From Pseudomonadales bacterium (GTDB lineage Bacteria; Pseudomonadota; Gammaproteobacteria; Pseudomonadales; JAHEIH01), in the NCBI GenBank assembly GCA_035458985.1, contig DATHYR010000011.1, positions 23,491-87,490 on the forward strand: DNA of 64,000 nucleotides, read 5' to 3'. The notes under the pieces were generated by a model. It was not told the DNA's origin. It did no database searches and worked only from the letters and a program-made list of their open reading frames with translations. Below are positions 12,573 through 20,948 of the stretch, piece after piece; position 1 is the first letter of the stretch, and every line of letters starts with the position of its first letter. The position numbers and the translations under genes were made by a program.

Positions 12573-13859
12573 CTATTTAATAAAGAAAATAAGGCTTTCT
12601 TCGGTATTGTTTTGTATGTCTCGGAAACGACGCATCATTTGGCTAGACACATGGGTATTCGCCGCCGCTAATAGCAATCCACTCGCCATGACCACATCAT
12701 GGCGAAGCTCATCCCCTTCAGAAAGTTCATCGAGCGTGATACCACCGAGTCGCGATGGAACACCGACTTCATCTAGGACAGATAAACAAATTTCTAAGAG
12801 GTCCGGATCATAAAAAGTACCCGCTCCCTCACGCAGCCATTTACTGGCGTCCGCATGACTCAGCGCACCACCAGGACCACCCTTGGCGGTGGCCATATTG
12901 TAATCAAGTAAAATACGCAATAGCCGAGAACCGAGCGGTATGTTGTGATCGGCCAAACCCGAGGGATACCCGGAGCCGTCGAAGTTTTCACCGTGGTGCT
13001 CAATAATGGCAGAGGTTTCACCTAACGCATCCAGCGGCGTAAGCATATCCGTACTCTCGCGCGGATACGTTTTCAATACATTTAACGCGTTGTCTGACAA
13101 CTCATGAACGGGACGACTCACCACATCCTCTGGCAGGCAAAGCTTGCCAATTTGAACCAGCTGGGCCGCCTGCAGAACACAGAGGCGCTGATTTTCATTC
13201 ATGTAGAGTTTCGCTGCACAGCGGTTAACGTGATAAAGCAAGTTCTCTAAAAACTCAGCCGGCAAATGACAATGACGGGTTGAAGCACTCGCAAAGATTT
13301 TAATAAATGTTGCGAGATTAATGCGCAACTCTTCTTGCTCAACATTGAGGAAGGCAACGGTCTTTTCCAACTGCCTGTTAGTCCGACGCACCTGGTCGTT
13401 GAGGGACATTTTACGAGCCTTCATAGACTCATAGGACTCTTTAATATGTTCGACTTCTCGCGCTTTTTCATCGTCGCGTAATTTAGAGTGCAGCAAACCC
13501 ATTATGCGTTCGACAAACTGGCGATTATCCCAAGGCTTTTCGATGTAGGCGTGGATCTTACCTTGATTAATTGCACGAGCAGTGGCTTCTTGATCTGAAT
13601 AACCCGTTAGCAAGACGCGCCGACTTTGCGGAGAAAACTTCGCGGCCGCAGCCAGAAGCTCAGCACCATCAAGTTTAGGCATGCGCATATCAGAAATTAT
13701 AAGGTCATAGCTGTTATGCATAACCATGTCTAACGCCTGATCTGGATCAGAGGCTAAATCTACTATGAAATCAGAACTGCGCAATAAACGTTTAAGTGCG
13801 TAGAGCACTTCCACCTCGTCATCTACACAGAGGATACGAGCCACTAAATTATCACTCAT
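12573..13859 (-). CDS. Response regulator: receiver domain + HD-GYP-type domain with degenerate HD dyad
   Basis: REC motif ILCVDDE...LIISDMRMPKLDG. HD-GYP signature HHGENFDGSGYPSGL. The canonical HDIGK position reads VQIGK. Confidence 0.8.
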   Translation of the reverse strand: MSDNLVARILCVDDEVEVLYALKRLLRSSDFIVDLASDPDQALDMVMHNSYDLIISDMRMPKLDGAELLAAAAKFSPQSRRVLLTGYSDQEATARAINQGKIHAYIEKPWDNRQFVERIMGLLHSKLRDDEKAREVEHIKESYESMKARKMSLNDQVRRTNRQLEKTVAFLNVEQEELRINLATFIKIFASASTRHCHLPAEFLENLLYHVNRCAAKLYMNENQRLCVLQAAQLVQIGKLCLPEDVVSRPVHELSDNALNVLKTYPRESTDMLTPLDALGETSAIIEHHGENFDGSGYPSGLADHNIPLGSRLLRILLDYNMATAKGGPGGALSHADASKWLREGAGTFYDPDLLEICLSVLDEVGVPSRLGGITLDELSEGDELRHDVVMASGLLLAAANTHVSSQMMRRFRDIQNNTEESLIFFIK

Positions 13860-13935
13860 GCCAAACTTCCAAGCTGTCAAATTTTTATTACAGAACTATA
13901 GCTCGTTAATGCGAGGAGTCAAAGCAAATCAGACC

Positions 13936-13960
13936 AAAAAAAAGCAGCGATTACGCTGCT
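13936..13960 (-). terminator. Rho-independent terminator
   Basis: On the minus strand, AGCAGCG-TAAT-CGCTGCT is followed by T7-8. The stem overlaps the stop codon of the 99-aa gene. Confidence 0.75.
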
Positions 13961-14250
13961 TTAGTTGATATCACTGAGTTCTCAGTTCCTTGATCATTGG
14001 GGATGTAAGCATCGGCCGCATAATCATTTTCCCACTCAGCATCATTCAGCAGATACTTGAATTGAAATTCAGCATCCGTTGGTAGGCGCAGCTTCAACTT
14101 GTAAGACCCTGTCTTCTTGTCAAATTTCATTGACTCAGGGGTCCAGTCATTAAAATCGCCTGCTAATTGAACTGACTTGACATCTTCGCGTGCAAATTCA
14201 AACACAACTTCAGCTTCAGACTTAGTTTTGAAAAACTTTTTACTTAACAT
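13951..14250 (-). CDS. Stand-alone CBM48/AMPK-beta glycogen-binding-like (early-set) domain protein
   Basis: VVFEFAREDVKSVQLAGDFNDWTPESMKFDKKTGSYKLKLRLPTDAEFQFKYLLNDAEWEND matches the E-set/CBM48 pattern (G-x-F-N-x-W...Y-K-F). Confidence 0.65.
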   Translation of the reverse strand: MLSKKFFKTKSEAEVVFEFAREDVKSVQLAGDFNDWTPESMKFDKKTGSYKLKLRLPTDAEFQFKYLLNDAEWENDYAADAYIPNDQGTENSVISTKAA

Positions 14251-14469: not shown

Positions 14470-15756
14470 ATGACTAGCCTCTCAGTTAGATCAGCGGTTT
14501 TGCTTGGGAGCATTACCGCCACGTCGCTATGCATAGCAGATCACGACTACGATGCCGAATTCGCCTACCAACAGATTAAAGCCTTACAGGCAGAAAACTC
14601 GGGCATCACGGAATTTGATATGCGCTTTGCCCTTGTGGCGATGTCGGTTCATCGATACGACGAAGCGATTTTTGCGCTGGAGCGGGTGCTTGAAGCACAG
14701 CCCAACAATGGCCGAGCGCGCACCGAGCTAGCGCGCTGTTATTTTGAAACTGGCCAATATCATCTTGCACGCACACTGTTTACGCAAGTCGCCGAAAACC
14801 AGGCGACACCCGCCACAGTGCAACACAATATCAATTACTACCTGCACGAAATGGATCAGCGCGGTAGCCAATTCGAGTTACAAAAACAGTTTTATGTCGA
14901 AGGCGGCATTGGAAGAGATAGCAACATTAATGCTGGCAGTGACTTGAGCAGCATTGACATTCCCAATCTCGGCAATGTGGCTCTCAGCGAGGCCAGCCTG
15001 GCACAAGATTCCAATACTCAGCACCTCGCGGCTGGCGCCAAACTTTACAAAGCTACCAGCAAATTTAAAGGCTGGTCGTTGCAAGCGGATGCTCAACAGA
15101 TCAACACCCCTGACAATAGCAATTACGACCAAGGCCTTGTTTCTATTGCAAGTGCTTTTCATTGGAGAGCGGAAGCCGATCGCTATCGGGTTGGCTTACA
15201 ATATCAAGCCCTGCAACTTGGCGGCGAAGATTTTTTCGCTAGTTTAGGGCTAGCCGCGCAATGGCACAGAACATTGAGTGAACGGTTGGTTGTTGGACTC
15301 ACGCTGCAGTGGCACGATGTTGATTTTGAAACCAATAACAATTTTCGCGATCACGACCGCGTACTTATGGGGAGTGACGTCCTTTTTGCCCGGGGCCAAT
15401 GGCGCCATCAATTGGGTAGCTTTATAGGTTCAGAACGCCCAACCAATGACCAGTTTGACTATGCCTTGCGGGATGCCATGTGGGGTCTCAATTATCGTTT
15501 AAGCTATATGCTCAATGCCAAATGGGTGCCTTACTTATCAGCCCAATACGTATCCAGCGACTATGGCGATACGCACCCTATATTTGCTTTGCAGCGCCAT
15601 GATAGCCAGCGCAGCCTTGAAGCAGGCCTTCTCTGGCAACCCGCCAAGGGCCTTACCATTAATCCAAGCCTTAGCGATACGCGCAACGACAGCAATATCG
15701 ATGCATACAGTTACGATCGCGATCGCGCGCAAATTAAGCTGCGCTACAACTTTTAG
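14470..15756 (+). CDS. Outer-membrane protein with N-terminal TPR region and C-terminal beta-barrel (Slam/DUF560-like, type XI secretion candidate)
   Basis: Signal peptide, then TPR-like helices (RYDEAIFALERVLEAQPNNGRARTELARCYFETGQYHLARTLF), then amphipathic strands ending in the OMP terminus IKLRYNF. Confidence 0.65.
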   Translation: MTSLSVRSAVLLGSITATSLCIADHDYDAEFAYQQIKALQAENSGITEFDMRFALVAMSVHRYDEAIFALERVLEAQPNNGRARTELARCYFETGQYHLARTLFTQVAENQATPATVQHNINYYLHEMDQRGSQFELQKQFYVEGGIGRDSNINAGSDLSSIDIPNLGNVALSEASLAQDSNTQHLAAGAKLYKATSKFKGWSLQADAQQINTPDNSNYDQGLVSIASAFHWRAEADRYRVGLQYQALQLGGEDFFASLGLAAQWHRTLSERLVVGLTLQWHDVDFETNNNFRDHDRVLMGSDVLFARGQWRHQLGSFIGSERPTNDQFDYALRDAMWGLNYRLSYMLNAKWVPYLSAQYVSSDYGDTHPIFALQRHDSQRSLEAGLLWQPAKGLTINPSLSDTRNDSNIDAYSYDRDRAQIKLRYNF

Positions 15757-15767
15757 GAGATGATGTC

Positions 15768-18086
15768 ATGCGTAAGTTACCACTATCGCTCATCGCCACG
15801 CCTCTCGCGCTAGCCATTACCGCCAGTCCAGCATGGGGCAATAGCAAAGCCGGCAAAGTCATACTAAGTAAGGGTGAAGTTAGTGCCACGCTTGCCGGCA
15901 GCGAACGCCAGTTGAAACGAGGTAAACCCATTTTTGAAGGGGATACTGTTAGCACGGGTAGTGGCGCCATGTTGCAGATGAATATGCTAGACAATGGCCT
16001 TATCTCACTCGCTGAGAATAGTGTCTTTTCGGTCGAAAGCTATCGCAATGACAGCGAGCGTGGCGAAGAGAGCGTGTTATTGAATATGGTAGAGGGCGGC
16101 TTTAGAGCTGTGACCGGTGGCATTGGCCAACAGAATCCCTCGGCTGTCAAAGTGCGCACGACAGTGGCTTCGATAGGTATCCGAGGCACGGGGTATGAAG
16201 TTTTTGAATTTAATGGATCGCTTTATGTGTCAATGCTATCGGGCACAGTGGATCTGAGTAATCGTGCCGGACGTCTAGTGATTGGCGAAAATGGCGAATT
16301 TAATTTTGCGCGCATCGATAGTGATAATACGCTACCGGTTGGACTTTATAGCCTGCCCGCCGATGTCGCTGCTAACAATCCGTTCTTCGCCTCGGTCGAC
16401 GTGCAAAGTCAAACCAACCCCTATCGGGTTCCGTTAGATCAGCTGGCGTTGAGAAGTTATCCCATCGTGGATTTCACACCGATCAATCCTGATGAAAACA
16501 TCGATAATCTCACGTTCACACCGGTATCCAATGACAATACTGACGGTCCCAACAACGGCGATGATGGTGGTACCGACAACCCAATTGATGATGACATCGG
16601 CGGGGATAACACCGCATTAAGTCCTGCTGAGTTTAGCGCCCCGGGGGTTACCGCCAAAGTTCTCCTTCCCGACAGTCCTCAACCCTACGCACTCAGCACA
16701 CGCACAAACAGGGCGGGTGACATTGTCTTAATGGTCGACCAAGATGCCACCGAGTCGAGTTATCAACGCCTTATTCGTCCGGGACTGGCAATGCCGGCGG
16801 AAGGCTACCCACGTACCATGGTTTTTGACAGCAAGACGACTTGGGGCGTTTGGCAAGCTAGTACAACGGCCCCTGCCACTCGATACACCCTGAGCGAAGG
16901 AATCCTTAGTAGTACACCCATTGAAGACACAATTTTTTGGATTTCAACGACACCTGCTACTGGACTTGTAGGTACTTACACCTTTCTTAGCACTGGCGCT
17001 TATATTGGCACGTCAACCGAAGGGGACATTGACAGCCTCAGCGCCAGCATGAGAATTAACTTTGATAGTGCCGTGGCAAGTAACGGTTTCTTAATTGTCG
17101 ATAGCGGTACTTACCGCTGGTCAACCCATTTTGAGGGTCCATTACAGGTGGGTATTAACGGCGAGCTAGGTGGCGACTTCACCCTCCGTGGAGATAACAA
17201 TAGCAGCGGCGTATTGAGCGGGTATTTTGTGACGTCGGATGAAATTTTCTTCACCGGCAGTTACAGCATCACCGACATCAACAGCGCTACAGCAAGAGGC
17301 CTATTGGCCATGGAAGGCTATCAGACCATCACCGTGTACGGTGGCGATGGCACCAATTTAGATCAATACGGAACACTGGCTACGTTTGAAGGCTCAGCCC
17401 TGTTACACGGCCCCACGGTGTTATCACCACTCACAACCACCCAGTTGGGCTACAACAGCACTGACGCGGACGGCACCCTCGCCGGATGGTTTGTCGAGCT
17501 GGACAACGCCGCCCCCGCCCCTGGCTTTCCTGTCCAAAAGACGGCGCTCTCTAGTAACACTTACTGGGGTGTTTGGAATGCCAATAGCACCAGCACAGCC
17601 AACCTTCGTTACAGGACCAGTGAAAATCGCGAGTACAACAGCCCTATCGAAGCAACGGTCTACTGGATGAGTACCGATGCTATAACGCTGACACGAACAG
17701 GCAGCGCTAGCTTTTCTAGCACCGGAGACTTTGTCGGCTCGAGCAACAGTGGCGCTGTCACTAGCCTCACCGCCAGCTTCGATTTTGATTTCGATAGTGC
17801 GTCACTCACCGGAGGGCAATTAGACTTAGTGGCCGGCGGTGACGCTTGGTCATTCCGTGTATCAGACGCCGCCAGTACCGAACTCAACATGGAGCACGGC
17901 TACTTTTCCGTGCGACAAACGCAAGTCAATGCTGAATCAAGTAACGGTGTATTTGGTGCGGTTGAAGGCTATTTTGTGGGAAGTGACGCGAGTGGCATCT
18001 CAGCCGCGTTTGGGCTTTTCCGGCAGGGTGACAGCAACTACCTCGACTCTGTTAACGGATTATTTAGCATGCAGGAAAGCCGCTAA
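15768..18086 (+). CDS. Secreted protein: FecR-like domain + acidic linker + two tandem TbpB/hemophilin-like beta-barrel modules (candidate Slam cargo)
   Basis: Type I signal peptide (ASPAWG/N, no Cys). FecR pattern GKVILSKGEVSA..GDTVSTGSGAMLQMNMLDNGLISL..IGIRGTGYEV..GTVDL. Two modules share WGVW, PIE.T..W.ST and GYFV.SD motifs. The gene starts 11 bp after the upstream gene and has a GGAG SD. Confidence 0.7.
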   Translation: MRKLPLSLIATPLALAITASPAWGNSKAGKVILSKGEVSATLAGSERQLKRGKPIFEGDTVSTGSGAMLQMNMLDNGLISLAENSVFSVESYRNDSERGEESVLLNMVEGGFRAVTGGIGQQNPSAVKVRTTVASIGIRGTGYEVFEFNGSLYVSMLSGTVDLSNRAGRLVIGENGEFNFARIDSDNTLPVGLYSLPADVAANNPFFASVDVQSQTNPYRVPLDQLALRSYPIVDFTPINPDENIDNLTFTPVSNDNTDGPNNGDDGGTDNPIDDDIGGDNTALSPAEFSAPGVTAKVLLPDSPQPYALSTRTNRAGDIVLMVDQDATESSYQRLIRPGLAMPAEGYPRTMVFDSKTTWGVWQASTTAPATRYTLSEGILSSTPIEDTIFWISTTPATGLVGTYTFLSTGAYIGTSTEGDIDSLSASMRINFDSAVASNGFLIVDSGTYRWSTHFEGPLQVGINGELGGDFTLRGDNNSSGVLSGYFVTSDEIFFTGSYSITDINSATARGLLAMEGYQTITVYGGDGTNLDQYGTLATFEGSALLHGPTVLSPLTTTQLGYNSTDADGTLAGWFVELDNAAPAPGFPVQKTALSSNTYWGVWNANSTSTANLRYRTSENREYNSPIEATVYWMSTDAITLTRTGSASFSSTGDFVGSSNSGAVTSLTASFDFDFDSASLTGGQLDLVAGGDAWSFRVSDAASTELNMEHGYFSVRQTQVNAESSNGVFGAVEGYFVGSDASGISAAFGLFRQGDSNYLDSVNGLFSMQESR

Positions 18087-18565
18087 TCCTTGCTATGCCC
18101 CAAAAAACGCTCAGCGAGTACCAGACCTTCACGCATGGCACTCGCTGCAGCGGTCACCTCTAACAAAAACGTGATCAAGGCGATAATTAACGCCAGCATG
18201 CAAAGGACAAATAGTCCGGCTATGACTTCACCAAGATTCGTGCTTAAAAACTGGCTGACAAAAATAGTAATAATGACGACACAGACCATCAACGCGCTAC
18301 TCGTCGCAAAGGTGATAGCAATATTGATGTAGCGCCCACGTCGCTCCAGACTTGACAACTCTTTATCTAATAGCGCGACTTGTTGCGGCGACAGTTGGCG
18401 GCGATCATTGCCATGCAGACGTCGACTACGATCGATCACGCGACCAAGCCGCGTTGTCATAACACCCAATAATGCCGCTATACCTGCCAACAAGAAAACC
18501 GGCGCCACCGCCACCTGAATGACCGAAGAAATAGCAAGATTGCTTAGAGGAAGGTCGTTGATCAT
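18083..18565 (-). CDS. DUF2721-like membrane protein
   Basis: N-terminus ISSVIQVAVAPVFLLAGIAALLGVMTTRLGRVIDRSRRL, a central coiled segment, and two C-terminal TM helices. Confidence 0.55.
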   Translation of the reverse strand: MINDLPLSNLAISSVIQVAVAPVFLLAGIAALLGVMTTRLGRVIDRSRRLHGNDRRQLSPQQVALLDKELSSLERRGRYINIAITFATSSALMVCVVIITIFVSQFLSTNLGEVIAGLFVLCMLALIIALITFLLEVTAAASAMREGLVLAERFLGHSKD

Positions 18566-18621: not shown

Positions 18622-19185
18622 TTACCCCTTCATTTTGGCGCGACGAATTTTCGCATCGGCTTCCATCACATAGTGAATCAACGCCTCTTCGTCGGCATGG
18701 CCTACGCCTTCAAAATTTAGCCGCCAACGATAAGCCTTTTTAAGATTGTCACAACCCACAACACGCGCCAATAACACTAGGCGGACATCTTGAGTCAGCA
18801 GGTGAAAACGGACCAAGCTCCCTTTTTCAACCGGCTCCTCACAGGTTATCGCCGCACCACAGGCACTCAAATTAATTCTCTGCACAACACAGGCAATGGT
18901 GTCATTGACGTCCAATTTCTCACCATGCTCGGCAATAACCAGGTTGAGTTTTTGATTGACCAATTTGATCAATTCAGCCGCCACGGGATCTTTGCTTTTA
19001 AGCGTATTGAGTAAGGTGCTGATACGCGCATCAAAACTGGCATTAAAGACATGCTCACCCCCTCGAGCCAACATTTCGCGATGACTTTCCGCTTCATGTT
19101 CACTCAATACTTCAACGGCCACGGGGGCCTCTGTATCAACACGAAAATAGCGTCTACGTTCTATTCCACCAGGTCCATGTGGCAT
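18622..19185 (-). CDS. PilZ domain protein with a ~90-aa insertion between the c-di-GMP binding motifs
   Basis: RRYFR (RxxxR) at aa 11-15 and NLSACG (D/NxSxxG) at aa 105-110. The ATG directly abuts the motB stop (TAG-ATG). Confidence 0.7.
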   Translation of the reverse strand: MPHGPGGIERRRYFRVDTEAPVAVEVLSEHEAESHREMLARGGEHVFNASFDARISTLLNTLKSKDPVAAELIKLVNQKLNLVIAEHGEKLDVNDTIACVVQRINLSACGAAITCEEPVEKGSLVRFHLLTQDVRLVLLARVVGCDNLKKAYRWRLNFEGVGHADEEALIHYVMEADAKIRRAKMKG

Positions 19186-20184
19186 CTAAAACACCTCATT
19201 AGGGTTTAATTGAAATAACGGTCGAGTATCAATTTCTAGGTCTCGTAATACATCGGGGGCATCGCGCCGCAACAAATCAACATCCGCTTGATCGACATCA
19301 TTCAAGCCCTGCTGAATGACAATTTCCACCCGTCGATTGATTGCTCGATTCTCCGTATTGTCATTTGCCACTAGCGGATGTGTATCCGCCAAGCCAGTGA
19401 CAGCCACACGCAAAGGGGAAAGGCGGCCTGAATCGAGTAACTCCATGGCGACCGATGAGGCCCTTGCACTACTGAGATCCCAATTTGAGCGAAAGCGCGC
19501 CGTATTAATGGGGACGTTATCGGTATGCCCTTGGATGGATATAGCGCCCGGTTGATTGACCAATACGTTGCCCACATTGCGAAGCACCTCTCGATATTCT
19601 GGCGCCAAGTCGGCTGAGCCGCTGGCAAACGAGCCGCGCTCTTTAATTCGCACAATTATCTTCCTACCACGTGTTTCAATTTCTACTTCACCACTGGCAA
19701 TCTGAGTCATTAAAGCTTGGGCTAATTCCATCGCATCTTGCTCAGTTTGCTTAACCATCTCTTCCAGTTTAGCCCGGATGTCGTCTTCTTGCTGAACGGT
19801 CAGCGAAGTCTGCACACCCGCTTCATCGTCCTGCTGCCCTTCCTCGACTTCCACTTCGCGGGCACATTCAAAATCTAACGTGGGGTCGAGGTTTGCATCG
19901 GTTTTCTGCCAAATCTCATTGATCGGTGTCGGCTCGGGACGGCCTGGAGAAAACTCTTGGGCTATCACAGAAGTCCCTTTGGGCGGATCGACCGCATAGA
20001 CTTGTGCTTGCACACCAAACGCCATTTTCATGGAACCTGCCAATCGCTTGAATTTCATAGCATCCATTTCAGAAAACGACAGCAACAAGACGAAAAAGCA
20101 CATCAACAATGACATTAAGTCAGCAAACGTCCCCATCCAGGGAGGCAGACCCGCTGGCGGGCATTTACAATCTTTGCCCGACAT
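19186..20184 (-). CDS. motB: Flagellar stator protein MotB/PomB family (OmpA-like C-terminal domain)
   Basis: N-terminal TM with the conserved Asp (TFADLMSLLMCFFVLLL). C-terminal OmpA-like segment (GHTDNVPI...NRRVEIV). Confidence 0.85.
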   Translation of the reverse strand: MSGKDCKCPPAGLPPWMGTFADLMSLLMCFFVLLLSFSEMDAMKFKRLAGSMKMAFGVQAQVYAVDPPKGTSVIAQEFSPGRPEPTPINEIWQKTDANLDPTLDFECAREVEVEEGQQDDEAGVQTSLTVQQEDDIRAKLEEMVKQTEQDAMELAQALMTQIASGEVEIETRGRKIIVRIKERGSFASGSADLAPEYREVLRNVGNVLVNQPGAISIQGHTDNVPINTARFRSNWDLSSARASSVAMELLDSGRLSPLRVAVTGLADTHPLVANDNTENRAINRRVEIVIQQGLNDVDQADVDLLRRDAPDVLRDLEIDTRPLFQLNPNEVF

Positions 20185-20948
20185 TAGTCATCCTCGCTTG
20201 CGCGTTGATTACTTGGCAGGTAGTTCTTCAACATGGCATCGATAATTTTAGGGTTTTGTCCCGCCTGAATACCAATAAGACCATCGATCATCATGCCCTT
20301 GCTTAGTGCCTCTTCCTTAGAGCGAAGCTCTAACTTATTCGCAATCGGAATGGCCACCATGTTCGCAATCATGGCCCCATATAGGGTGGTTAACAAAGCC
20401 ACCGCCATGGCTGGACCGATGGCTTTTGGGTCATCCATATTCGATAACATGGCTACCAAGCCAACCAACGTACCAATCATACCCATAGCAGGCGCGAGAT
20501 CAGCCATGACACGAAAGATCTTCACGCCGCTGTCATGACGATCTATGGTTTGATACATGTCAGTTTCTAAAAGATTTCGAACCACCGAGGCGTCGTGACC
20601 ATCGACTAATAATTGAATGCCATAGGCAAGAAAGTCGTTGCTTACCTCCTTGCCCTCAAGGGTCAATAGCCCACCTTTACGAGCAGAATCGGCCAATCCA
20701 ACTATTTCAGCGATCAATTCTAATGGCGCTATCGACTTCACCACAAAGGCTTTGCCGGCGACTTTTAGCGCGCCTAAAAATTGTGAAAGCCCAAAGTTAG
20801 CCATGGTGACAAGAATGGTACCGACGACCACGATCAGCACCGACGTCAAATCGCCAAACATGCCCAACACACCGTTACTTGAAAGAAACATTGCCACTGT
20901 GACAATGATAAAACCGCCGACAATACCGACTAGCGTTGCGAGATCCAC
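20184..20948 (-). CDS. motA: Flagellar stator protein MotA/PomA family
   Basis: A 254-aa four-TM MotA/TolQ/ExbB-type channel (APAMGMIGTLVGLV, LLTTLYGAMIAN). GTG start with an AAGGAG SD. There is a 1-nt overlap with motB (TAATG). Confidence 0.85.
   Translation of the reverse strand: MDLATLVGIVGGFIIVTVAMFLSSNGVLGMFGDLTSVLIVVVGTILVTMANFGLSQFLGALKVAGKAFVVKSIAPLELIAEIVGLADSARKGGLLTLEGKEVSNDFLAYGIQLLVDGHDASVVRNLLETDMYQTIDRHDSGVKIFRVMADLAPAMGMIGTLVGLVAMLSNMDDPKAIGPAMAVALLTTLYGAMIANMVAIPIANKLELRSKEEALSKGMMIDGLIGIQAGQNPKIIDAMLKNYLPSNQRASEDD

Follow-up and report, generated by a model that had tools for sequence, protein, structure and literature searches.

We analyzed a 64,000-nucleotide stretch of the genome of a Pseudomonadales bacterium (GenBank assembly GCA_035458985.1, contig DATHYR010000011.1, positions 23,491 to 87,490 of the forward strand), which is called the window here and whose own numbering is used below. 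Two adjacent genes in the window appeared to encode a Slam/DUF560-type outer-membrane protein (OMP), the translocon of type 11 secretion systems (T11SSs), and a candidate cargo protein that carries an N-terminal FecR domain. The two genes and the ribosome-binding sequence between them were placed as follows.

14470 to 15756, plus strand: gene for the Slam/T11SS-type OMP, an open reading frame (ORF) of 428 amino acids with the C-terminal end ...IKLRYNF
15754 to 15758, plus strand: AGGAG Shine-Dalgarno sequence, 9 nucleotides 5' of the cargo ATG and overlapping the OMP stop codon
15768 to 18086, plus strand: cargo gene, an ORF of 772 amino acids without cysteine that has full-length homologs (P0001 to P0006) at 51 to 99% identity

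The junction between the genes read ...aac ttt taGGAG atgatgtc ATG, with a gap of 11 nucleotides on the same strand. Because the Shine-Dalgarno sequence lies over the OMP stop codon and the gap is this short, the junction suggested that the OMP and cargo genes form a translationally coupled operon. The flanking genes on both sides of the operon were on the opposite strand. Promoter and terminator scans around the operon gave matches no more frequently than they did in shuffled sequence, and no claim was drawn from them. The original prediction for this locus, which was made from the sequence alone, had described an OMP with a signal peptide, TPR-like helices, and a beta-barrel ending in IKLRYNF, followed 11 bp downstream by a 772-amino-acid gene behind a GGAG Shine-Dalgarno sequence. 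It had also assigned to the second protein a type I signal peptide without a lipobox cysteine, a FecR-type segment, a linker rich in D, N, and G, and two tandem modules. All of these parts were recovered in the analyses that follow.

The OMP contained three recognizable regions.

14470 to 14538, plus strand: predicted Sec signal peptide, about amino acids 1 to 23 (MTSLSVRSAVLLGSITATSLCIA), with the cleavage site inferred from the sequence
14626 to 14808, plus strand: periplasmic tetratricopeptide repeat (TPR) region, amino acids 53 to 113, matched by Pfam TPR_19 and TPR_16
14887 to 15753, plus strand: SlipAM/DUF560 beta-barrel domain, amino acids 140 to 428, matched by PF04575

The residues TSLC in the signal peptide did not form a canonical lipobox. 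TPR_19 matched amino acids 61 to 113 with 44.1 bits, and the TPR_Slam match was weak (22.7 bits versus a cut-off of 35.2). The SlipAM model (PF04575) matched the barrel with 37.1 bits, which was above the Pfam cut-off of 22, and the match ran end to end (profile positions 2 to 288 of 288). A barrel-only hidden Markov model (HMM) derived from an alignment of OMP homologs (A2) matched the window OMP with an E value of 3e-121, and OMP relatives at 83% identity had the same gene context. A PgaA-, BcsC-, or EpsL-type identity or a porin identity was rejected, with scores of 13 to 25 bits versus cut-offs of 29 to 290 bits; the cut-off of 29 was that of Pfam OMP_b-brl, which was matched on relatives. 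The EpsL, KdgM, OmpL, and DUF2860 models gave short C-terminal matches, all far under their cut-offs. When the OMP profile was compared with Protein Data Bank (PDB) sequences, only TPR proteins and OmpX were returned, and no solved Slam structure was among those sequences. By the sequence-defined criteria of the family, the OMP is a Slam/T11SS protein, the assignment that the original prediction had proposed.

The cargo protein was divided into six segments.

15768 to 15839, plus strand: type I signal peptide, amino acids 1 to 24, ending ASPAWG/N
15846 to 16322, plus strand: N-terminal beta-sandwich domain, about amino acids 27 to 185, in which the part resembling the retention (plug) domain of RTX adhesins spans about amino acids 32 to 107
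16323 to 16787, plus strand: acidic low-complexity linker, about amino acids 186 to 340, with a core rich in D, N, and G, recognized by composition
16788 to 17327, plus strand: module 1, a handle and barrel like those of a TbpB lobe, amino acids 341 to 520, a member of the module family
17328 to 17522, plus strand: inter-module segment, amino acids 521 to 585, lying between the HMM-defined modules and predicted with low confidence to be beta-rich
17523 to 18083, plus strand: module 2, handle strands and a TbpB-type barrel, amino acids 586 to 772, at the extreme C terminus

The signal peptide read MRKLPLSLIATPLALAITASPAWG/N. A lipobox is impossible in this protein because the whole 772-residue sequence is without cysteine, and a crude lipobox pattern was found in only 5 of the 150 best module-profile hits. 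On these two grounds, lipidation seems to be rare or absent in the cargo family. The core of the linker was NDNTDGPNNGDDGGTDNPIDDDIGGDN. The linker was 15% acidic and 4.5% basic, and its predicted local distance difference test (pLDDT) scores were 20 to 35 in a full-length AlphaFold2 (AF2) model; linkers across the family had a median length of 225 amino acids and were 19% acidic.

Modules 1 and 2 were 37% identical over 161 amino acids (E = 2e-23). An AF2 model of module 2, based on an alignment of 42 modules (A5), had a pLDDT of 88.8 and a predicted TM-score of 0.84, and in it about nine long strands came after an N-terminal set of four or five short ones. In a Foldseek search of the PDB with this model, the top ten structures were all Slam cargo, namely the NHBA C-terminal domain and TbpB (C-lobe or full length). 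Their E values started at 6.7e-5 (NHBA C-terminal domain), with a probability of 1.00 and query-normalized TM-scores of about 0.5, HpuA came at ranks 14 and 15, and the nuclear magnetic resonance structure of NHBA was found lower down. Similar relationships were obtained from profiles. The A5 profile of 42 diverse modules had 12 hits among PDB sequences, and 11 were TbpB, NHBA (GNA2132), or a hemophore (TbpB 4qq1, E = 0.0019). Individual PF01298 matches were found in 9 of the 42 modules, the best with an E value of 1.1e-6, and hhalign aligned A5 with the C termini of three PF01298-bearing FecR proteins at 94% probability (E = 1.3e-7). The smaller 12-sequence profile (A3) hit nothing among PDB sequences and reached only 28% in hhalign with the PF01298-bearing C termini. 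The full-length cargo model, which was built from ten sequences, had a mean pLDDT of only 44 and was used as weak support; it still aligned with bilobed TbpB over 500 to 680 columns (E of about 5e-8).

The predicted structure of module 2 thus had the C-terminal TbpB-type eight-stranded barrel after a handle by which Slam cargo is recognized structurally, and Pfam and NCBIfam scores were under threshold. TbpB itself is composed of two lobes that each contain a handle and a barrel (PMC12282271). The model suggested that each module of the cargo corresponds to one such lobe, so that the C-terminal half of the protein would be a TbpB-like bilobe. The original prediction of TbpB-like modules was therefore supported by the model, the structure search, and the profiles. 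Its proposal of a duplicated targeting barrel held for the duplication and less well for the targeting: because family members carry between one and seven modules, probably only the last barrel is an export signal. In the window cargo, Slam recognition and export are presumed to rest on module 2.

To define the cargo family, the 12-sequence module profile was used in an exhaustive HMMER search, which returned 295 representative proteins (clusters at 50% identity) with E values of 1e-3 or lower, 160 of them at 1e-10 or lower. Family proteins had one to seven modules, many with two to seven in tandem, and for most of the 150 top-scoring proteins no more than about 10 residues separated the end of the last module from the C terminus. 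The hosts were mostly marine or other environmental bacteria, mainly Oceanospirillales, Cellvibrionales, and other mostly uncultured bacteria. Cultured carriers included Bermanella sp. R86531, Oceaniserpentilla, Reinekea blandensis MED297, and Saccharospirillum mangrovi.

Gene pairing was then scored in 62 loci, with one genome per species, by searching six-frame ORFs with purpose-built HMMs of the Slam barrel, FecR domain, and module. A Slam-like gene was located immediately upstream on the same strand for 25 of the 27 module-bearing FecR genes in other genomes. Of the two remaining genes, one came second among the cargo genes of its operon and the other lay where its contig ended. Short FecR genes in the same scan (160 to 480 amino acids) had no Slam-like upstream neighbor in any of 25 cases, and chance adjacency of the OMP and cargo genes was rejected on this comparison. 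The pair recurred across dozens of genomes that are unrelated to one another. In close relatives at 78 to 80% identity (Cellvibrionales and Pseudomonadales metagenome-assembled genomes [MAGs]), the whole neighborhood was kept, and the synteny that the original prediction had left for a survey extended from Cellvibrionales to Campylobacterota and Victivallales. As independent examples, a JGI metagenome contig had a SlipAM gene (26.9 bits) followed by a gene for a 565-amino-acid protein that combines FecR with TbpB_B_D (51.6 bits), in a Victivallales MAG a TPR-SlipAM gene preceded a FecR/TbpB_B_D gene, and an Agitococcus MAG (L007:4640-13198) had two tandem pairs of a SlipAM-type OMP and a FecR cargo. 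The pairing was also found when the search was started from the OMP. Three of four OMP homologs (26 to 31% identity) were followed by FecR-module genes, and the fourth was followed by a gene for a protein of more than 2,000 amino acids with a FecR-like N terminus. At some loci, one OMP gene preceded several cargo genes: there were three FecR-module genes in S. mangrovi (L074:5001-11416, CP031415) and two in L036:8615-14792.

The family membership of the OMP, the C-terminal modules, and the conserved pairing led us to conclude that the two genes very probably constitute a type 11 (Slam/DUF560) secretion pair, that is, a translocon and its dedicated cargo. A different explanation for the same co-occurrence, which alone is no proof of export, would have the FecR protein stay in the periplasm and bind, as a partner or regulator, the TPR region of a Slam-like barrel that has some other job, as a porin or in other export. 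Among T11SS OMPs of marine cluster 3, barrel-type cargo is a rare neighbor and a change of function is possible (PMC12282271), several of the upstream OMPs (the Bermanella type described below) score under the SlipAM threshold, and fusions of FecR to Slam (also described below) show FecR as a possible periplasmic appendage of the barrel. We judged this explanation to be improbable, however, as the TbpB-type barrel, a hallmark of Slam cargo, is located at the extreme C terminus of nearly all family members, and a protein whose modules number up to seven and whose linker runs to hundreds of residues resembles an extended surface fiber and not a periplasmic regulator.

Several observations on individual members of the OMP and cargo families were made along the way. 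The Bermanella-type upstream OMPs (L005:6555-7922, L010:4511-5893, and L019:8525-9898; 455 to 460 amino acids) were under the Pfam SlipAM threshold. Pfam gave TPR and weak OMP_b-brl matches for these proteins, and the barrel HMM from the window homologs matched them with E values of 1e-39 to 1e-44; Pfam-based surveys of T11SSs would overlook this branch. A single frameshift near amino acid 222 split the OMP gene in the lineage that carries the cargo P0006, which is 51% identical (L003 and L004: 6703-7395 and 7392-7988). The split sequence was identical in two Logan assemblies and had an intact version that was 96 to 99% identical (P0052), so it could be an assembly error, a pseudogene, or the same sequence carried by both assemblies. 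Giant family members (P0075 to P0079 and P0100; L040:1977-8828 in a Gammaproteobacteria MAG) were 1,800 to 2,300 amino acids long and had six or seven tandem TbpB-like modules downstream of one FecR domain. No Slam gene was seen at L040, where only 1,976 bp of contig lay upstream. A Bermanella-like Slam-FecR cassette was found in a MAG assigned to Bacteroidota (L023; JBLHVV010000010.1, labeled Crocinitomicaceae), and this is most likely the result of contig mis-binning and not a genuine presence outside Proteobacteria. The more divergent occurrences in Victivallales (L009) and Campylobacterota (L048, L052, and L053) may be genuine.

We turn now to the N-terminal domain of the cargo. The Pfam FecR model (PF04773) matched amino acids 59 to 161 with 48.5 bits, relative to a cut-off of 24. 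This domain was the best-conserved part of the protein, with identities to the window protein of 26 to 61% versus 17 to 32% for the modules, which is the reverse of known Slam cargo. It directly followed the signal peptide in 85 of the 150 best module-bearing proteins, and most of the others look like N-terminally truncated metagenomic fragments. A profile of 21 N-terminal domains (A6) had a single significant match among PDB sequences, 5ix9_A, with an E value of 1.4e-8 over about 76 residues. Foldseek aligned the corresponding part of the model with 5ix9 at a target-normalized TM-score of 0.75, a root mean square deviation of 1.0 Å, and 31% identity. The structure 5IX9 shows RIN, a domain of MpIBP, the ice-binding RTX adhesin of Marinomonas; RIN is located in the periplasm, exceeds the size of the TolC-like pore, and was proposed to act as a pore plug that keeps the adhesin attached (PMC5550230). 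The retention module of LapA was modeled on the same structure (10.1101/198937). The NCBIfam model retention_LapA (NF033682) gave 24.3 bits for the window cargo and 16 to 33 bits for relatives, with a cut-off of 50; the aligned segment of 5ix9 itself gave 41.6 bits as a 76-amino-acid fragment, and the cut-off of 50 applies to the full length.

These results suggested that the first half of the cargo FecR domain and the plug domain that RTX adhesins have in the periplasm are probably homologous. On this reading, the domain probably has an anchoring or machinery-binding role and is probably not the surface effector or sensor that the original prediction had suggested. FecR domains fused to the OMP pointed to the same compartment. 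In Reinekea (L034/L035:9848-11872), Gynuella (L044:9953-11929), and L033:9932-11875, the Slam-like OMP was composed of a signal peptide, FecR (60 bits), TPRs, and the barrel. These fusion proteins were 647 to 674 amino acids long, and in each case a FecR-module cargo gene followed. Since the N-terminal part of Slam is periplasmic, this Rosetta-stone-type fusion would bring FecR to the periplasmic end of the translocon.

The name of the domain raised a second possibility, in which the cargo is a FecR-type component of cell-surface signaling, one that would sense a signal at the outer membrane and, in the manner of an anti-sigma factor, pass it on to transcription. PF04773 is above its cut-off, and a putative anti-sigma factor structure (4m0n) weakly matched the second half of the domain in the PDB comparison (E = 0.24). 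A FecIR-type role was nevertheless rejected and seems very improbable. The FecR domain starts about 30 residues after a cleavable signal peptide, and the protein has neither a cytoplasmic anti-sigma domain nor a transmembrane helix. Within ±8 kb in the window lineage, and at the other loci examined, there was no extracytoplasmic function (ECF) sigma factor or TonB-dependent transducer, and the short FecR proteins of our pairing scan never had a Slam neighbor. No TonB-dependent receptor was found in the same regions either. Given that neither a TonB-dependent receptor nor an ECF sigma factor was nearby, both classical metal piracy and FecIR signaling are unlikely.

The findings on the two proteins were combined in a proposed mechanism. 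Both proteins would enter the periplasm via Sec, as read from their signal peptides, and the 428-amino-acid OMP, by its family membership, would insert in the outer membrane as a TPR and barrel translocon. In the model for Slam1 and TbpB, a C-terminal motif of the unfolded substrate is recognized first and the chain is then threaded outward (PMC9090332). By homology and synteny, the translocon here would recognize the last module of the cargo and thread the unfolded chain outward with the C terminus first, and the two TbpB-like lobes would fold outside the cell. The N-terminal beta-sandwich would fold in the periplasm, where it would be too big for the pore, and the cargo might be held through or at the Slam channel by its acidic disordered linker of about 150 amino acids, as a type 11 counterpart of LapA and MpIBP retention. 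The exposed lobes would then provide a binding or adhesive surface, and the existence of proteins with up to seven lobes suggests adhesin-like fibers rather than nutrient piracy. If the genes are an export pair, we considered the chance of the plug-tether step to be about even. The complete proposal, in which the cargo is a tethered, plug-retained surface protein on an export pair, is put forward tentatively, with our confidence in it somewhat under even.

The main competitor to tethering is full export. In this alternative, the genes are likewise an export pair, but the cargo passes the outer membrane in its entirety, its FecR domain serves outside the cell as an effector for ligand binding or adhesion, and the protein is either released into the medium as hemophilins are or bound noncovalently to the surface. 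Known Slam cargo is exported with its functional domain at the N terminus, and cargo of the non-lipidated kind is secreted (Grossman et al. 2025, PMC12282271). Because Slam substrates pass through unfolded, with Skp as their holdase, the N-terminal domain need not fold first (PMC9090332). Full export would also fit the loci at which several cargo genes stand behind one Slam gene. It fits less well with the conservation pattern, in which the N-terminal domain is the most conserved part and the modules and linkers diversify, and with the periplasmic plug as the sole significant solved relative of that domain. The fusion of FecR to the periplasmic end of Slam in Reinekea and Gynuella and the lack of a nearby TonB-dependent receptor for a scavenged ligand also speak against it. 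Overall, we regarded full export as possible but doubtful.

A number of points weigh against a plug-retained Slam cargo and should be set beside the evidence for it. The non-lipidated Slam cargo characterized so far, the hemophilin class, is released and not tethered. Two or three cargo genes per Slam gene are awkward for a permanent arrangement of one cargo per pore. The retention_LapA model was matched by all nine family proteins tested, including the window cargo, and every score was under the cut-off. The residues VAAN were found in the cargo linker shortly after the N-terminal domain (...LPADVAANNPFF...); a di-alanine site cleavable by LapG was rejected because it was not conserved in P0007 and P0008, and there was no LapD or LapG gene within ±8 kb. 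The N-terminal domain also weakly matched the Leptospira FecR-domain lipoproteins Lsa33 and LipL45, which NCBIfam names as a surface adhesin and a lipoprotein, and on this basis the FecR domain may work outside the cell. The link to TbpB depended on a family profile with marginal E values against the PDB (0.002 to 0.07) and on a predicted structure; the window cargo alone had no PF01298 match, and its NCBIfam slam_lipo (NF041636) match had an E value of 0.64. Finally, the full-text literature that we searched held no experiment on any family member, and export, topology, and tethering are for that reason all inferred.

The proposed pair was compared with five groups of known systems. Like Neisseria Slam1 and Slam2 with TbpB, LbpB, HpuA, and fHbp, it has an OMP composed of TPRs and a DUF560 barrel that is encoded beside the cargo gene, and both proteins are Sec dependent. 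The cargo has the C-terminal TbpB-type eight-stranded barrel of the Neisseria substrates and, as in TbpB, the bilobed arrangement in which the handle and barrel occur twice. Unlike those substrates, the window cargo is not a lipoprotein, has no cysteine, and carries an extra FecR/retention-like N-terminal domain and a long acidic linker. The loci also differ in that there is no nearby TonB-dependent receptor and the hosts are mostly free-living environmental bacteria and not host-adapted pathogens. The hemophilin-type hemophores (Hpl, Acinetobacter HphA, and Xenorhabdus HrpC) share a non-lipidated Sec-dependent cargo, a C-terminal barrel, and a position beside a DUF560 OMP gene. They are small (about 250 amino acids), have a single handle and barrel, and are released, and their loci lie beside a TonB-dependent receptor and heme-utilization genes, with FecR present only as a separate neighboring regulator gene.

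The tandem handle-barrel pairs and the low-complexity N-terminal region are reminiscent of the multi-barrel surface proteins of Psychrobacter and Sphingomonas, which have two or three such pairs and are predicted to be exported by the T11SS OMP encoded next to them (Grossman et al. 2025, PMC12282271). Those proteins differ in being mostly lipoproteins with Pro/Thr-repeat N termini and no FecR domain (PMC12282271). With the RTX adhesins (the MpIBP RIN domain 5IX9 and Pseudomonas fluorescens LapA), the window cargo shares the absence of a lipid anchor and, probably, a homologous N-terminal beta-sandwich. The order of parts is also that of LapA and MpIBP, namely a plug, a flexible linker rich in Gly and Asp, extracellular domains, and a C-terminal export signal. 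The RTX adhesins, in contrast, use type 1 secretion (an ABC transporter and a TolC-like pore), possess no Sec signal peptide, and contain RTX repeats that bind Ca as well as a site for cleavage by LapG, whereas the window cargo would take the Sec and Slam-barrel route, and its locus has no RTX repeats or type 1 secretion genes. The PF04773 domain is shared with FecR/PupR anti-sigma regulators, in which it is periplasmic; unlike those regulators, the cargo has no anti-sigma domain, membrane helix, partner ECF sigma factor, or TonB-dependent transducer. Thus, the window cargo is neither a FecR anti-sigma factor nor an RTX adhesin.

The original prediction knew of no characterized protein with this combination of domains, and no paper that described a Slam/DUF560 cargo with a FecR domain was found in the full-text literature searched (subscription-only papers lay outside the search). 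FecR is not among the approximately 10 cargo architectures in a 2025 survey of T11SSs (PMC12282271). In the T11SS literature, it appeared either as a neighboring regulator gene or, together with sigma-70 domains, in a supplementary table of co-occurrences. What is new here is the probable homology of the cargo N-terminal domain to the RTX-adhesin plug and, possibly, a new retention mechanism.

The cargo family extends T11SSs beyond the animal-associated bacteria from which the handful of experimentally known systems come. The survey just cited had posed the question of what many environmental Slam-like proteins export (PMC12282271), and the family provides a concrete candidate for an environmental Slam cargo, with 295 clusters, near-perfect synteny, and cultured carriers. 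It also corrects annotation, since these proteins are labeled "FecR family protein" or "hypothetical" and surveys class Slam-adjacent FecR as regulators. If the tethering proposal is true, non-lipidated T11SS cargo kept by a periplasmic plug in its own translocon would be a new form of Gram-negative surface display. The same retention domain would have been recruited by two unrelated secretion systems, and "FecR" would have a role outside iron signaling. Adhesin-like surface fibers with one to seven TbpB-like lobes would then be widespread, and their release might be regulated by proteolysis.

Some features of the surrounding DNA were also recorded. The cargo stop codon overlapped the 3' end of a convergent DUF2721 gene (18083 to 18565, minus strand) by 4 nucleotides (18083 to 18086), and a hairpin scan found no terminator-like hairpin between the two genes. 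On the other side of the operon was a divergent gene for a 99-amino-acid protein (13951 to 14250, minus strand) with a strong terminator-like hairpin at 13962 to 13941. Its position beside the cassette was conserved in two close relatives, L001 and L003, and in L003 its product had a weak match to AMPK1_CBM, a glycogen-binding-like domain. Genes linked to cyclic di-GMP or motility flanked the operon in the window (12573 to 13880, 18622 to 19185, and 19186 to 20948, all on the minus strand); their products were an HD-GYP-type (HD_5) response regulator, a PilZ-like protein, MotA, and MotB. The unrelated cassette in L008 likewise had a response-regulator HD_5 gene nearby, and a divergent gene for a cyclic nucleotide (cNMP)-binding protein was directly upstream in the Bermanella-type loci L005 and L010. 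These cyclic di-GMP- and cNMP-type neighbors may reflect LapA-like regulation, or else they are a coincidence.

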